DNA of 64,000 bases from an uncultured Candidatus Cloacimonadota bacterium (GTDB lineage: Bacteria > Cloacimonadota > Cloacimonadia > Cloacimonadales > WRIO01), in assembly GCA_964573665.1 (NCBI GenBank), contig CAZNKI010000002.1, forward strand, positions 70,526-134,525, in the 5' to 3' direction. Made by a program: the position numbers and the translations under genes. This document shows positions 17,593 through 23,959 of the stretch, in pieces. Within the stretch, counting starts at the first letter, position 1. Each line of letters begins with the position of its first letter. The notes beneath the pieces were generated by a model. The model searched no databases. It was not told where the DNA came from and saw only the letters and a list, made by a program, of their open reading frames with translations.

Positions 17593-17970
17593 TTAATAGA
17601 TTGATGTCGGAGGCAACTTGTGATTTGGATGTTTTGCCTCATTAGCACAACGAACTTCTACAGTGTTATTTACTGGATCAATAATCACATTGTATTTGTC
17701 ACCGATATTTTCCTCTGGACATTCTGGTGAATTGTCTAAGTATTTACCATTGACTAAATCATTCACTGTTATTTTTGTTACTGGCCCTCTGTCATTAACA
17801 TAACTTTGAACTGCTTCAGTGATCTTCTTCATATTCTTAATACAATCTTCAGTTTTTTTGCCTTTGTTGAGATCAAACATATTTGGCAATGCCAAAATGA
17901 ATATAAAAACTAATGCAAAAATTATGCTTAATATTTTGTAAATGCTTATCCCTTTTTGATTTGTGTTCAT
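17593..17970 (-). CDS. Type IV pilin / ComGC-like protein
   Basis: Prepilin-like 'QKG|ISIYKIL' plus a hydrophobic helix, then 'C..NMKKI..AV..Y' and C-terminal 'CPE' and 'C..H'; RBS GGAG. Confidence 0.7.
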   Translation of the reverse strand: MNTNQKGISIYKILSIIFALVFIFILALPNMFDLNKGKKTEDCIKNMKKITEAVQSYVNDRGPVTKITVNDLVNGKYLDNSPECPEENIGDKYNVIIDPVNNTVEVRCANEAKHPNHKLPPTSIY

Positions 17971-18134
17971 TGTATTCTCCTAATTTATAATTCTTTTTGT
18001 CTAAATCATACGATTATCACCTATTAGTCAAGCTTTTTCTTGTTTTTTTCTTTAATTTTACTTTTTTATATAATTTTCTTGCTTTTTTTTCTTTTTCTTA
18101 ATATCATATTTGAAGTGATTAGGCGGAGGTAGAT

Positions 18135-18905
18135 ATGGATATTGGAACAATTATGGGTGTTGTGGTCGGACTTGGTCTGATTATTGTTTCAATTTTGATG
18201 GGTAGTAGTCTTTTAATTTTTGTCGATTACCCCTCTTTAATGATTGTCGGTGGCGGTACGATCGCTGCAATGTTTATTGCGTATCCGATGAAAAGTGTAT
18301 TTATGATCATGAAAGTTACTCGTAAAGCTATATTTCACAGACCTATGGAAATTCATACCATCATTGCTGATGCCAGTAAATTCTCTGCCCTGGCAAAATC
18401 TCAAGGGGCGATTGCTTTAGAGAAAGAACTCGGAAGTGTTAAAGATGAATATTATAGAAAAGGTTTACAGATGATCGCTGACGGCACATCGCTCAGCGTG
18501 ATCAATGATATTATGGGTGGTGAAATTGGCTTAATGAGAGAAAGACATGCTTTAGGTAGAAATATTTTCAATGACATTGCCAAATTTGCTCCAGCTTTTG
18601 GTATGATTGGAACCTTGATTGGACTCGTTCAAATGCTCGCAAATCTGTCTGATCCCGCAAGTATAGGTCCTAAGATGGCAGTCGCTTTGTTAACTACTTT
18701 TTATGGATCTGTAATCGCAAATTTAGTTGCTACTCCATTGGCAACAAAGCTCAAAGGACGCTCTGAAGATGAAACGCTTGCCATGAGATTAACACTTGAA
18801 GCGATTAAGTCAATCGCAAAAAACGAATCACGAAATATCATTGAAGATAAACTCGCTGTCTTCCTTTCAGGTGAAATGAGAAAAAAAATGAATTCAGGAA
18901 AGTAA
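18135..18905 (+). CDS. MotA/PomA-family stator A subunit
   Basis: 'MDIGTIMG', 'SLMIVGGGT', 'KGLQMIADG', 'APAFGMIGTLIGLVQML', 'MAVALLTTFYG'. Confidence 0.9.
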   Translation: MDIGTIMGVVVGLGLIIVSILMGSSLLIFVDYPSLMIVGGGTIAAMFIAYPMKSVFMIMKVTRKAIFHRPMEIHTIIADASKFSALAKSQGAIALEKELGSVKDEYYRKGLQMIADGTSLSVINDIMGGEIGLMRERHALGRNIFNDIAKFAPAFGMIGTLIGLVQMLANLSDPASIGPKMAVALLTTFYGSVIANLVATPLATKLKGRSEDETLAMRLTLEAIKSIAKNESRNIIEDKLAVFLSGEMRKKMNSGK

Positions 18906-18915
18906 GGAATGAAAT

Positions 18916-19734
18916 ATGGCAGATCAAGATATTGATGATAATAACAATTCTAATTTAGAACCTGAAGAAGAACATCCAGAAGGTGCTCCAGAATGGATGG
19001 TCACTTATGGTGATCTGGTAACACTCCTACTGTGTTTTTTCGTCCTTTTGTTTTCTATGTCTAAAGTTGAAAAAGATAAATTCGAAGCGATCGCTGCATC
19101 TCTAAAATCAGCTATCGGTAAAGATCAAGTCCCAGATGCTGGTACTCAATTAGGATTAACTATGAAAACTAGTCAGGACAGTATCAAACAAAATGCTGTT
19201 GATGAATTGGGTGGATTAGTAAAAAAAGAGATCGAAAAAATTGACTCTGAAGTCAAAGAATTCATCTTTGCGAACCAATTAGGCGGTCAAGTTAAAACTA
19301 AAGTGGATGAGAAAGGATATGTTATTACAATCTCTGATGTGATTCTATTTTTGCCAGGTAAAGCAGTGATTGAAGATGGAGCTTATCTTCTTCTTGAAAA
19401 AATAAAAGATATTTTAAGCCGATTTCAGTATAATGTGAGAATTGAAGGGCATACTGATAATACACCAATAAAAAATCAATTTTATCCTTCCAATTGGGAA
19501 CTGTCTTCTGCCAGAGCATGTGAAGTGGTTCGGTTCTTTATTGATAAAGGTATTCCTCCTGAACGTTTATCTGCTGAAGGATTTGCTGAATATAGACCTG
19601 TTGCCACCAATGATACGCCTGATGGTCGAGCATTAAACAGAAGAGTGGAGATTGTTTTTGTGCGTGAAGCGATGGAAAAAGAACTTCAAAAGATTCATCA
19701 AGAACATCTTAAAAATGAAAAGTCTCCTCAATAA
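18916..19734 (+). CDS. MotB/PomB-family stator B subunit with OmpA-like peptidoglycan-binding domain
   Basis: 'WMVTYGDLVTLLLCFFVLLFSMS' TM helix with the conserved Asp; 'IEGHTD', 'SNWELSSARA', 'NRRVEI'. Confidence 0.9.
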   Translation: MADQDIDDNNNSNLEPEEEHPEGAPEWMVTYGDLVTLLLCFFVLLFSMSKVEKDKFEAIAASLKSAIGKDQVPDAGTQLGLTMKTSQDSIKQNAVDELGGLVKKEIEKIDSEVKEFIFANQLGGQVKTKVDEKGYVITISDVILFLPGKAVIEDGAYLLLEKIKDILSRFQYNVRIEGHTDNTPIKNQFYPSNWELSSARACEVVRFFIDKGIPPERLSAEGFAEYRPVATNDTPDGRALNRRVEIVFVREAMEKELQKIHQEHLKNEKSPQ

Positions 19735-19775
19735 ATTTAAGTTTACCATTAATTATTCGAATATAGTAAAGAGGA

Positions 19776-20573
19776 TTGCTAATGGAAAATAAAGTAAAAA
19801 TTTTACTGCTCAATGAAGGCAAAGAAGACATTGCTTTCTTAACAAATTTACTCGAAAAATTGCGATTAAAAGTGATTCTTGTGAATTCAATCCCTGATGC
19901 AATTGCTGAACTCTATCGCAGTTATATATCTTTGAGTCTGATTATTATTTCGAAATCTCATCAATCACTTGATTTTCTTCTCCCTTTTAAACTTGAAAAT
20001 AAAGTGTTTATTCCTACCATAGCGATCAATATTGACTGTGAAATCACTGTCAAAGAACTTTATGATTTCGGCTTTGAAGATGTTTTTAGAGCCCCTTTTG
20101 ATGAACATCTGTTTAAACTTAGACTAAACTCATATCTCAAACTAAAAAGAATGAATGATAAAATTAATAACGAAAAACTTAAACTGGAAAAAGAAATTGA
20201 GTTTTCTATGCAGATTTTAAAATCAATAAACTTAGGGATACTCCTTTTTGATGATGAAGGAAAGATCCTTTTTGAAAACGAGAATGCAATTCTTTGTATT
20301 GGAAATTCTATCAATGAAAACATAAATCACTTGCTTAAATCAGATCGATTTATCACAGGGAAATCAGCTTATATTGATTTTTTAAATGAAGATTATCAAG
20401 ATTCTCTATATCTTACAACAAAAGATGGCAAATATCTTGAAATTAAAAGAATGTCCTTGATTGAGAATGCGAAATTGACACAGGGTGCTGTCATTATCAA
20501 TGAGTTGAACACTAGCTCGAAAGTAATGAAAGCAGATCATAAAACTTTAAAGTCTTTTCTAAAATATTTCTAA
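19776..20573 (+). CDS. Receiver-like (pseudo-REC) plus coiled coil plus PAS-like protein
   Basis: N-terminal 'KILLLNE...', 'IPTIAI', 'GFEDVFRAPF....FKLRLNSYLKLK' follows the REC fold without canonical D/K; then 'QILKSINLGILLFDDEGKILFEN', a PAS-like start. Confidence 0.5.
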   Translation: MLMENKVKILLLNEGKEDIAFLTNLLEKLRLKVILVNSIPDAIAELYRSYISLSLIIISKSHQSLDFLLPFKLENKVFIPTIAINIDCEITVKELYDFGFEDVFRAPFDEHLFKLRLNSYLKLKRMNDKINNEKLKLEKEIEFSMQILKSINLGILLFDDEGKILFENENAILCIGNSINENINHLLKSDRFITGKSAYIDFLNEDYQDSLYLTTKDGKYLEIKRMSLIENAKLTQGAVIINELNTSSKVMKADHKTLKSFLKYF

Positions 20574-20585
20574 CAGGAGTCTCTT

Positions 20586-21032
20586 GTGGAACATGAAGTG
20601 AAAACGATTTCTGAACGATCATTGATTTGGCTGAGACATGAAAATGATAAGTTTTATTCTTATCATTCACCCAATCAGATAATTCAAGCACTTAAAGATA
20701 AGAAGAAAATGTATTCCATTTCAAACTCTTCTCAGGAATCATTAATCACTCATTGTGAATTTGTCGGACAATTTGATCTTTACGAAGTAAAACTATTCTC
20801 TGGTTCTAAAATTATCTGTAATGAGTTTATTGAAGTTAATATTGAAAAATTATGGGTCCCAGTGAATGAGATTAACTTTTATGAACAATTGATTGAGTTT
20901 GATATCTATAGTAATCATTTTAAAGAAACTTACATTGTAGGTCTTACAGAAATTCCCAACAGTCGCGCTTGTGTGATTGATACTAGCGACCACATGGCTG
21001 TAATTAATAATTTTTTGGTTAAACTTCAATAA
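20586..21032 (+). CDS. Hypothetical protein, probable degenerate Hint (intein-like) fold
   Basis: GTG start after AGGAG. The order of segments matches Hint blocks by eye ('TISERSLIWL', 'LYEVKLFSGSKIIC', 'WVPVNEI', 'IVGLTE', 'VIDTSDHMAVINNFLVK'). Confidence 0.45.
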   Translation: MEHEVKTISERSLIWLRHENDKFYSYHSPNQIIQALKDKKKMYSISNSSQESLITHCEFVGQFDLYEVKLFSGSKIICNEFIEVNIEKLWVPVNEINFYEQLIEFDIYSNHFKETYIVGLTEIPNSRACVIDTSDHMAVINNFLVKLQ

Positions 21033-21130
21033 TTAATACGAGTAAAGATAGTTGCAAATAAACAAAAATTTTATATTTCTTCTTGACAGGATCATTTTCC
21101 TCTTAGATTTTGATCTCGGAGGATCTGATT

Positions 21131-23959
21131 ATGAAAGAAAAAATTATTATTAAAGGTGCTCATGAGCACAACCTAAAACACATTGATCTGGAAATACCCA
21201 GAAATGAACTTATCGTTTTTACAGGTGTTTCTGGTTCAGGAAAATCCTCTTTAGCATTTGATACCATTTATGCCGAAGGGCAAAGAAGATATGTCGAATC
21301 CCTCTCTGCTTATGCGCGTCAGTTTCTTGGTCAAATGGAAAAACCAAAGATTGATTATATCGAAGGACTCTCTCCTGCGATTTCTATAGATCAAAAAGCT
21401 GCCAGCAAAAACCCTCGATCAACTGTTGGAACTGTAACTGAAATTTATGATTACTTGCGTATCCTTTTTGCAAGAGTTGGTAAACAATACTGTCATATCT
21501 GTGGTGATGAAATTAGCTCGCAAAGCATTGATCAAATGGTCAATCGCCTGATGGAGTTGCCTGAAAAAACTAAGATTCAATTACTTTCTCCTCTGGTTCA
21601 AAATCGAAAAGGAGAACATAAAGACGAGTTAGACCATGTTAGAAAAGAAGGTTTTACAAAAGTTATTGTCAATGGACAACTTAGAGAATTAAGCGAAGAA
21701 ATTATCCTCGATAAAAAAAGTAAACATAATATTGATGTTTTAGTCGATAGAATAGTCATTAAGGAAGGGATTCAGTCAAGAATCTCTGACTCATTGGAAA
21801 CTGCGCTTAAGCTAAGTAACGGTGTTGTAAAAATCGATTATATTGATCATAATGAATTTGAGATTATGTCAGAGCATAACTCCTGTCCAAAATGCAATAC
21901 AAGTTATCCAGAGCTTTTACCTCAACATTTTTCTTTTAACAGCCCATTAGGGATGTGTCCCGTTTGTAACGGACTTGGTACAAAACTCGAGTTCGATCCA
22001 GATCTTATCATTCTTGATAAAACGCTATCAATAAACGATGGAGCGATCGTTCCTTGGGGAAAAATGAACGATAAAAAAAATAGTTGGACAATGGGGACTG
22101 TTGTTAAGATCGCCGAAGAATTCAATTTTTCCCTTGATGCCCCTTGGAATACTTTGTCTGAAGCTGTTCAAAATGTTATCCTTTATGGAACAAAAGGCAA
22201 AAGATTTAAGATACAATGGAAATCAACTCACGGACTTGGCGAATATATGGTCAAATTTGATGGGGTCATTCCGACGATGGAAAGAAGAATGCATGAAACA
22301 ACTTCAGAACCTATGCGCCAATGGTATATGCAATATATCTCTGATAAACCTTGCCCTGAATGTAATGGACAAAAACTGAAGGCTGAGTTTCTTGCAGTTC
22401 GCATTCAAAATGAAAATATCTCTACAATTACACAAAAAACAATTCAATCTGCCTTAGACTTTTTTACCCATTTAGAACTTTCTGGTAACAACTTGATTAT
22501 CGCAGAAGATATTTTAAAAGAATTAAGAAATCGTTTGGGCTTTTTAAATAATGTCGGTTTACATTATCTGAATCTTGCACGTAGATCTCCTACACTGTCA
22601 GGTGGTGAATCTCAGCGTATTCGCCTTGCCAGTCAAATTGGCAGCGGTCTTGTTGGGGTGTCGTATATTTTGGATGAGCCAAGTATTGGCTTACATCAGA
22701 GAGACAATGATCGCCTAATTGAGATGCTCCTTAAATTAAAAAATCTTGGAAATACTGTGATTGTTGTTGAACATGACGAAGATATGATGCGGGCTGCCGA
22801 CCAGATAGTTGATTTTGGACCTCGCGCTGGGATTAATGGAGGAGAAATTGTTGCTCAAGGAAATATTGATGCCATAAAAAAAAATCCACGCTCATTAACA
22901 GGAAAATATCTCTCGGGTCAATTGAATATCAATATGCCTGAAAATAGAAGACCAATGGGGGATCAGTTTATTTCAATTAAAGGAGCGAAACAAAATAATC
23001 TCAAAAACATTGATGTAAATATTCCTTTAGGTATGTTTGTTTGTGTGACTGGAGTCTCAGGATCTGGAAAAAGTTCTCTGATCAATCAGATTCTTTATCC
23101 TGCTGCTGCAAATAAATTGAATCGCGCAAATATCAAAGTTGGTGAACATGAAAGCATTCTTGGCTGGGATTACCTGGATAAGGTGATTGATATCGATCAA
23201 CAACCCATTGGTAGAACTCCACGGTCAAATCCAGCAACCTATATAAAACTTTTTGATTCGATTAGAGAGTTGTTTGCTGAAATTCCTGCTGCCAAAATTA
23301 AAGGCTTTAAATCAGGAAGATTCTCTTTTAATGTCAAAGGGGGGAGATGTGAAGCCTGCGAAGGTGGAGGTGTTAAACTCATCGAAATGCATTTCCTTGC
23401 AGATGTTTATGTCACCTGTGAAGTGTGTAAAGGAAAAAGATATAACCAGGAAACACTCTCTGTGAAGTATAAAGGAAAAAGTATCTCTGACGTTCTGAAT
23501 ATGGATGTTCAAGAGTCCTTGAATCTCTTTGAAAATATTCCTAATATCGCAAAAAAACTGCAAACCCTTATGGATGTTGGTTTAGATTATATTAAGCTTG
23601 GTCAATCTGCAACAACACTTTCTGGTGGAGAAGCCCAAAGAATCAAACTTGCAAAAGAACTTTCCAAAACTTCTACGGGTCAGACTTTATATATTCTCGA
23701 TGAACCCACCACTGGACTTCATTTTGATGATATTAATAAATTATTGGTTGTGCTACAAAGATTAGTCGATATGGGTAATTCTGTAATCGTTATTGAACAT
23801 AATCTTGATGTGATTAAATGTGCAGATTATATCATTGATCTTGGTCCAGAAGGCGGTGATGCCGGGGGTACTATAGTCGCTGAAGGTACTCCTGAGTATC
23901 TGTGCAGCGTGAAGAAGTCTTTTACTGGTAAATATCTGAAGAAACACTTAAAAGGATAA
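21131..23959 (+). CDS. uvrA: Excinuclease ABC subunit A
   Basis: Two '[10 protein letters not shown]' Walker A motifs, '[12 protein letters not shown]', '[12 protein letters not shown]' and CxxC zinc modules; ATG at 21131. Confidence 0.98.

Follow-up and report, generated by a model that had tools for sequence, protein, structure and literature searches.

Hint domains, exemplified by inteins, Hedgehog, BIL and pre-toxin Hint domains, are known as single-turnover enzymes. The N–S acyl shift in inteins, Hedgehog and BIL domains needs a histidine in block B. Mini-inteins sit in conserved sites of replication genes, and the Hog domain of Hedgehog, endowed with Cys1 and the TxxH motif, bears a large N-terminal cargo and performs cholesterol transfer. 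A domesticated case is the yeast HO endonuclease, a VMA1-type intein that is free-standing, does not splice and is kept for a host function, with its LAGLIDADG endonuclease as the working part. Here, the comparison is extended to a 64,000-nt stretch of DNA (the window) from an uncultured Candidatus Cloacimonadota bacterium (contig CAZNKI010000002.1, positions 70,526 to 134,525). On its forward strand, an open reading frame (ORF) at 20586–21032, with a GTG start and a TAA stop, encodes a free-standing protein of 148 residues, the size of a mini-intein. By predicted fold and profile homology, this protein is a member of the Hint superfamily. Unlike HO, it consists of the Hint domain alone, with no nuclease, and an intein-type domain seems to have been retained for another job.

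The fold was predicted with AlphaFold2 on a 23-sequence family alignment (A2), no templates being used, with a predicted local distance difference test (pLDDT) score of 93.1, a predicted template modelling score of 0.86 and 121 of the 148 residues at or above 90. The predicted model has the characters of the Hint superfamily, i.e. an all-β horseshoe in which the N and C termini meet at one cleft. Foldseek against the PDB returns 62 matches at E ≤ 1e-3; all those listed are intein, Hedgehog autoprocessing or BIL domains, led by the NrdJ-1, NpuDnaB, Ssp DnaB and Mtu RecA inteins (TM 0.73–0.81, with 0.80–0.81 for NrdJ-1 and NpuDnaB). Re-alignment with VIA gives 90 chains with Z ≥ 8, and all 50 listed are Hint-fold proteins of the intein, Hedgehog or BIL types. 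At the top is the NpuDnaB intein 4o1r (Z 20.4, root-mean-square deviation (rmsd) 1.8 Å, 136 of 142 residues aligned), with the Ssp DnaB and Mtu RecA mini-inteins at Z 19–20, Hedgehog 1at0 at Z 18.2, the Tetrahymena BUBL BIL2 domain 6y75 at Z 16.5 and the Clostridium thermocellum BIL domain 2lwy at Z 15.8. Since the structural match runs from residues 1–7 to residues 147–148, the whole protein is one Hint domain. A first-pass annotation, made from the letters of the window, had read the protein as a Hint domain and had opposed this to a CheW- or SH3-like fold; the confident model and its Foldseek and VIA matches uphold the Hint horseshoe.

Kinship with inteins is also visible in sequence profiles. 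Searched against all PDB sequences, the A2 profile finds five matches at E ≤ 10, four of which are inteins: the Spl DnaX mini-intein (E 3.5e-4), NpuDnaE (0.21) and two DnaB inteins (1.1 and 1.4). The fifth is the specificity subunit of EcoR124II (E 0.54). Over the 203 genomes of the order, the same profile picks a long frame in genome G190 of family f11 (E 1.6e-5), which is a genuine intein according to Pfam (Intein_splicing 4.9e-23 and LAGLIDADG_3 2e-13), and hhalign pairs A2 with this frame over 91 columns (probability 77%, E 2e-5). Homology to known Hint domains is thus detectable in the PDB profile search, by hhalign and in the genome cross-match. In a feature search of the ESM Atlas, the ten best Pfam-carrying matches all belong to the Hint clan. 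Collectively, the block resemblance exceeds chance, with four of five PDB profile matches being inteins and the top 50 structural matches all of Hint type. In the window's own genome, Intein_splicing (PF14890) and PT-HINT (PF07591) have no match at E ≤ 1. The G190 intein with its LAGLIDADG homing endonuclease lies inside a long frame at L030:1-2442 on the minus strand.

The block correspondences proposed in the first-pass annotation hold in these alignments. In block A, 'TISERSLIWL' brings residue 7 of the model onto residue 1 of the Mtu RecA intein and onto Cys258 of Hedgehog, and hhalign sets T7 on C210 of the G190 intein, the Cys of 'KCVEENSLVYL'. The region 'FSGSKIICNEFIEV' aligns with block B of the Spl DnaX and G190 inteins, where N79 falls on T/S and I82 on His; W90 aligns with the intein Trp in both the DnaX profile alignment and the hhalign comparison with G190; and 'ACVIDTSDHMAVINNFLVK' aligns with '...VYDIEVEHNHNFVANGLLVH' of DnaX in the A2 profile alignment. 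The superpositions pair residues 7–147 of the model with residues 1–440 of the Mtu RecA mini-intein, or 7–148 with 1–441 (5i0a), and residues 7–148 with residues 258–401 of Hedgehog. HMMER against DnaX puts N79 and I82 on T and H and 'INNFLVK' over 'ANGLLVH'. With three alignments agreeing, T7 (codon 20604–20606) is the structural equivalent of the Cys1 nucleophile of inteins, N79-E80-F81-I82 (20820–20831) takes the place of block B T-x-x-H, while at 21021–21029, directly before the stop codon, K146 replaces the penultimate His, L147 the terminal Asn and Q148 the +1 residue of an extein. Cys1, TxxH and the terminal HN are therefore all absent from the window protein, as first claimed. No extein is present either: six residues precede position 1, and Q148, the only residue after the Asn position, is the last before the stop.

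Mini-inteins (NpuDnaB 4o1r, Ssp DnaB 1mi8, Mtu RecA 2in0 and Spl DnaX 7cfv) have the same full-length fold over 134–136 residues (Z 19–20, rmsd 1.8 Å) and share with the window protein the block A pattern '[C]-I-S-E-x-x-x-I', the 'SG' turn, 'W...E(L/I)...(D/E)' and a last strand with 'NN/NG-hydrophobic'. Unlike them, the window protein has no host or exteins, carries T7 for Cys/Ser1, N79/I82 for T/H and K146-L147 for H-N, and has no +1 nucleophile. Whereas mini-inteins occupy their sites in replication genes, the present family is inherited vertically in one bacterial family. Every mark of a class 1 intein is missing, i.e. host insertion, the nucleophile at position 1, TxxH and HN+1. The Hog domain (1at0, 6tyy) shares the Hint fold over 131 residues (rmsd 1.6 Å) and, like the window protein, has no terminal Asn or +1 chemistry; in place of a large cargo, Cys1 and TxxH, the window protein has its six-residue leader, no His and no sterol-recognition extension. 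BIL domains likewise have the Hint fold, are bacterial and are found outside conserved housekeeping proteins. According to PMC7664689, their setting is a larger protein, often secreted or variable, and they cleave by means of a retained Cys1 and block B His. Compared with BIL domains, the window protein is free-standing and its family is devoid of this His (0/27 members). Thus the fused cargo and the Cys1 and His that mark Hog and BIL autoprocessing are missing as well. Uncharacterised stand-alone proteins of Hint size in phages and Bacteroidota are single-domain, 137–172 residues long, with a Hint fold or a Hint-clan Pfam match. They include BFVD entry A0A1S5RCV4 (143 residues, TMt 0.77), further entries of 172 and 153 residues, and Atlas clusters of 141–171 residues with Intein_splicing or Vint/Hom_end_hint/Hint. 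Their likeness is one of fold or features (Atlas scores 0.84–0.91), which makes them leads only, and none has a motility context. Their existence means that the stand-alone state is not unique in itself. A full-text literature search returned neither a paper on an inactive Hint protein that stands alone nor one that places a Hint fold in a flagellar setting.

The ORF at 20586–21032 is a real conserved gene. Six-frame searches find one uninterrupted homologue in each of the nine genomes of the window's family (26–49% identity) and one further, weaker match in a neighbouring family. At the level of the order, 12 of the 203 genomes match the profile at E ≤ 1e-3: all nine of the window's family (f1), the single f10 genome and two weak f11 matches, namely the G190 intein and a 426-residue frame (E 6.1e-4). 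An exhaustive phmmer search over 1.84 billion representatives gives 11 proteins at E ≤ 1e-3, and a profile search of 90% clusters gives 12 clusters. Because the database matches are so few, the family is small and lineage-restricted. Fused relatives of 320–2000 residues are not found among 8000 candidates scored, which is weak evidence. A 31-residue match in an Aerococcaceae metagenome-assembled genome, from a scan of genome contigs with a single protein as query, was judged spurious and set aside.

Residues at the catalytic positions were counted over 27 family sequences, composed of the 23 of A2, G017, G006 and two metagenome members. The block B His is found in none of them, the block B Thr in one (G017), with Ser in four; the penultimate His is likewise found in none, Lys or Arg occupying that column in 25 of the 27, and the terminal Asn occurs once (G008). 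Position 1 is more variable. Among the 24 members with an intact N-terminus it is Cys in 13, and L, I, M, V or T in the other 11; in the window's clade of six the residues are T, L, L, L, L and M, with no Cys. The claim of a Hint fold without the splicing residues holds for the window protein, but does not extend to a family uniformly lacking Cys1. Where the N-terminus is complete, the leader before position 1 is 3–10 residues long; after the Asn position come 0–38 residues, in tails that are acidic or proline-rich in distant members. Other positions are strongly conserved: among the 23 sequences of A2, G73 and W90 are invariant and E100 and N141 nearly so, and they match the SG turn, the Trp, the acidic residue and the last-strand Asn of inteins. 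A maximum-likelihood tree of 24 rows (the N-truncated fragments P0006, P0008 and P0012 being left out), rooted only at its midpoint, needs three changes between Cys and non-Cys, and its two most divergent rows (P0013 and G017) have Cys. Since roughly half of the family retains Cys1, and its most distant genomic member (G017) the block B Thr, we infer descent from an active Hint domain through stepwise loss of residues, a direction that depends on the root of the tree. The family would provide a natural series for active-site decay: G017 has both Cys1 and the block B Thr, many members have Cys1 alone, and the window's clade has neither.

In the window, the Hint ORF is the fourth gene of a row on the same strand that starts with motA (MotA_ExbB, 18135–18905, Pfam E 5.7e-28) and motB (MotB_plug and OmpA, 18916–19734, Pfam E 6.9e-22 and 6.3e-19), continues with a gene for a 265-residue REC-like/PAS-like protein (19776–20573; hereafter REC/PAS) and is followed by uvrA at 21110. 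An AGGAG motif resembling a Shine–Dalgarno sequence (20575–20579) lies 6 nt upstream of the GTG, within the region where 12 nt separate the REC/PAS stop from the Hint start. Neighbourhoods were surveyed at nine loci, with 109 flanking ORFs annotated against Pfam. The order motA-motB-REC/PAS-Hint is found in four of the nine family genomes (G000, G003, G005 and G007), which represent three genera, and three genomes that belong to the genus of the window (G001, G002 and G003) have the order Hint-cheA-cheW; Hint thus adjoins a stator or che gene in six of the nine. In the four stator loci, 12, 2, 1 and 9 nt separate the REC/PAS stop from the Hint start, and this spacing of 1–12 nt in three genera suggests co-translation. 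The first-pass annotation had called the protein an unusual partner for a stator operon: adjacency to motAB indeed recurs in four family genomes but is missing from the other five, and the gene itself is not found in five other flagellated families of the order. Flagellin genes occur in 9/9 family genomes, as does FliG_C above the Pfam cut-off (E ≤ 1e-3), G008 counting by a 94-residue frame alone (E 1.7e-8). Strong FliG matches (about 1e-40, frames of ~280–400 residues) occur in families f1, f2, f5, f6, f9, f10 and f13 of the order, so that both Hint-bearing families, f1 and f10, are flagellated. In families f11 and f12, many genomes that have no strong FliG match FliG_C at E values between 1e-11 and 1e-20, for the most part in frames of ~450–530 residues. 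These we presume to be not FliG but probably another protein sharing the domain, in which case FliG_C alone overcounts flagellated genomes. The CheA encoded beside Hint in G003 (L011:8551-12303; also in L012 and L013) combines H-kinase_dim, HATPase_c, CheW and a C-terminal receiver, with no Hpt in the same ORF; in G003 a separate Hpt protein of 358 residues comes after cheW.

The REC/PAS gene directly upstream forms an ORF apart from Hint, closed by a stop codon, in each of the four genomes. Its product in the window has weak NCBIfam matches to PnpS (PAS region) and CpxR (REC) and no Pfam REC match, whereas the orthologues in G005 (L014) and G007 (L016) pass Pfam Response_reg. In an alignment of the orthologues (A3), those of G005 and G007 have 'DD', the Asp of 'LLDV' and 'RKPF', where the window protein has 'NE', 'IIIS' and 'RAPF'; judged by these motifs, the REC-like domain of the window looks like a pseudo-receiver. 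The extreme C-terminus is invariant in the four orthologues (H-x-x-L-K-x-F-L-x-x-F), and the same tail (H-x-x-L-K/N-x-F-L-x-x-F) is found in REC/PAS proteins of G013 and G020. A complex prediction for REC/PAS (A3) with Hint (A2) scores 0.00 against a mark of 0.32 and weighs neither way on binding. G013 has thyA-folA-REC/PAS-tpiA-serS, G007 has REC/PAS-Hint-TPR-tpiA-serS, and G008 has Hint-TPR-tpiA-serS behind an AcrB gene; on this comparison, Hint seems to have been inserted into a gene order older than itself. By tblastn, the non-coding gaps beside Hint in G001, G002 and G008 contain no REC/PAS remnant better than E 3. The REC/PAS and Hint frames coincide in the window (one TAA and four codons between them, 20571–20588) and in L016, and not in L011 and L014. 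Programmed read-through into a REC/PAS-Hint fusion had been considered and was dropped, a shared frame in two of four loci being the chance level.

As a whole, these data are best explained, with a probability of about three in four, by a free-standing and complete Hint fold that has lost its splicing chemistry and would serve in the cytoplasm as a non-catalytic binding module. The first-pass annotation had proposed a binding or scaffold module, and the putative role considered here is the binding of proteins or peptides. In Hint domains, the cleft normally holds two extein junctions. The putative surface would comprise this cleft, remodelled at the meeting point of the two termini, and the family-specific conserved residues F71-S-G73-S-K75, E100, N140-N141 and the Lys/Arg at 146. 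Across the family, the residues lining the cleft are hydrophobic or Cys at position 1, one of Gly, Ser and Asn at block B, a conserved Lys or Arg at 146, and Phe or Leu at 147, and the working hypothesis is that the former extein-junction cleft may be reused as a peptide-binding site. Given the tight coupling of the genes and the invariant C-terminus of REC/PAS, the latter would be the first candidate partner. It cannot be the sole one, since five genomes keep Hint without REC/PAS.

Several observations weigh against this explanation or against its link with motility. The fold is a prediction and not a solved structure, and AlphaFold2 on the single sequence gives an unusable model (pLDDT 32.9). 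No single member reaches the Pfam gathering score of a Hint-clan family (Hint, Intein_splicing, PT-HINT, Hint_2 and Vint); the best bit scores among members are 14.7 for Hint (cut-off 29.7) and 13.9 and 14.6 for Intein_splicing (cut-off 35.8), with E values of 0.024 for Hint and 0.029–0.048 for Intein_splicing, amid equally weak matches to the unrelated PIMT_C (1.4e-4) and 7TM_GPCR_Str (0.0017). The retention of Cys1 across long branches in half of the family is unexplained by a purely structural role. As to context, no motility neighbour is seen in the loci of G004, G006, G008 and G017 (G004 has a sigma-70-family gene ~4 kb off), nor in any of the four metagenome loci examined, two of which are shorter than 3.1 kb (six loci were returned, one identical to the G004 contig and one a fragment). 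Full-length REC/PAS is absent from five of the nine genomes that keep Hint and occurs only in the four where it adjoins Hint. G013 and G020, which belong to two other families, have REC/PAS but no Hint gene; found there with a profile of the C-terminal half, REC/PAS is adjacent to neither motAB nor Hint. Finally, the flagellated families f2, f5, f6, f9 and f13 have no match to the Hint profile among the 203 genomes of the order.

The absence of any Pfam Hint model above threshold, and a chemotaxis or motor context that would suit CheW or PilZ, might point to another small β-rich fold (CheW/SH3-like, PilZ or FliW) with a superficial likeness to Hint. This is scarcely credible. The VIA and Foldseek matches listed are all Hint-fold proteins covering residues 1–7 to 147–148, with no CheW/SH3-like, PilZ or FliW fold among them; the profile matches to inteins are independent of the model; and CheW, PilZ and FliW are found neither at E ≤ 1 for the window protein nor among the families listed at E ≤ 10 for 18 members, although absence from such a list does not in itself exclude a family. 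The loss of the catalytic residues could also mean that the protein is a relic, functionless and in decay, of an intein or a mobile-element Hint protein, and the nearest ESM Atlas clusters are indeed unnamed and mostly viral (137–164 residues, score 0.90–0.91). Yet uninterrupted frames of similar length persist in 9/9 genomes at 26–49% identity, G73 and W90 stay invariant with E100 and N141 nearly so, a confident fold is predictable from family covariation, and no prophage genes occur among the neighbours, which together leave this reading very improbable. Residual Hint chemistry is a less remote option. A (thio)ester may form at position 1, with cleavage or transfer of the leader, at least in the relatives with Cys1 and conceivably in the window protein via Thr7. 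Consistent with this, Cys is found at position 1 in 13 of 24 members over branches of 0.3–1.9 changes per site, behind a leader of 7–10 residues, and inteins tolerate wide variation of active-site residues, as stated in PMC7664689. Set against these points are the loss of the block B His in all 27 sequences and of the block B Thr in all but one, and a position 1 not kept as a nucleophile in the window's clade. We consider such activity improbable.

For a non-catalytic module, the question becomes where it works. That it is real and has a job unrelated to motility, the stator and che neighbours being an accident of the landing site in an ancestor of the family, has just short of an even chance. 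This would explain the differing neighbours in three of the nine family genomes, in G017 and in the four metagenome loci, the insertion of Hint into what looks like an older REC/PAS-tpiA-serS arrangement and the flagellated families devoid of the gene. It fits poorly with the tight REC/PAS spacing in four genomes of three genera, which suggests co-translation, and with the stator or che neighbours in six of the nine genomes and the flagellated state of both families holding the gene. Conversely, synteny suggests that the arena may be the flagellar motor or chemotaxis signalling, a possibility that we place clearly below even odds; the view of the neighbourhood as a historical accident is rated somewhat above it. 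A more specific version, in which a domesticated mini-intein has become a free-standing subunit of the motor or of chemotaxis, with a cleft that would clamp, for example, the REC/PAS tail, and in which the Cys1 relatives would keep thioester chemistry on their own leader, appears unlikely. If correct, the family would capture an intein-type enzyme midway in its change to a binding module. A vertically inherited, free-standing family with the whole fold and neither the block B His nor the terminal His-Asn would be a clear-cut example of a self-splicing domain put to non-catalytic use. A true link with the stator or with chemotaxis would add an unexpected fold to the motor accessories; if the link is false, what remains is an uncharacterised family that no Pfam or NCBIfam model matches above threshold and for which a profile model could be made.

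The window protein matches no Pfam family at E ≤ 1, and its NCBIfam matches at E about 0.05 are at chance level. A promoter scan of 17900–21250 gives 14 sites, compared with 14.6 in shuffles, and thus stays at the shuffle level; a terminator scan of the same region gives no terminator-like site 3′ of the Hint ORF. RNA data cover small shares of 18100–21100 in ten runs. Contigs of two metatranscriptome runs from one study reach just short stretches of motA and motB, and a 95-nt contig spanning 20987–21080 comes from one run that is probably DNA. Among the RNA-library contigs, none extends over the body of the Hint ORF, which weighs neither way on its expression. Divergently from motA, an ORF of 125 residues (17593–17970, minus strand) encodes a protein with a pilin-like hydrophobic N-terminal segment ('...ILSIIFALVFIFILALPNMF') and no Pfam family above noise; a similar ORF occupies the same place in G005 (L014:4666-5034). 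In G001, a non-coding gap of 774 nt with 26% G+C (L013:7215-7988) lies 5′ of the Hint gene and contains about four tandem copies of a unit of ~40 nt ('GTTTAGTTAAATGCATTTTATAATCTTTTT...') and a short triple repeat of 'GGATGGTAACG'. In relatives, type IX secretion sorting domains are found on neighbouring proteins.

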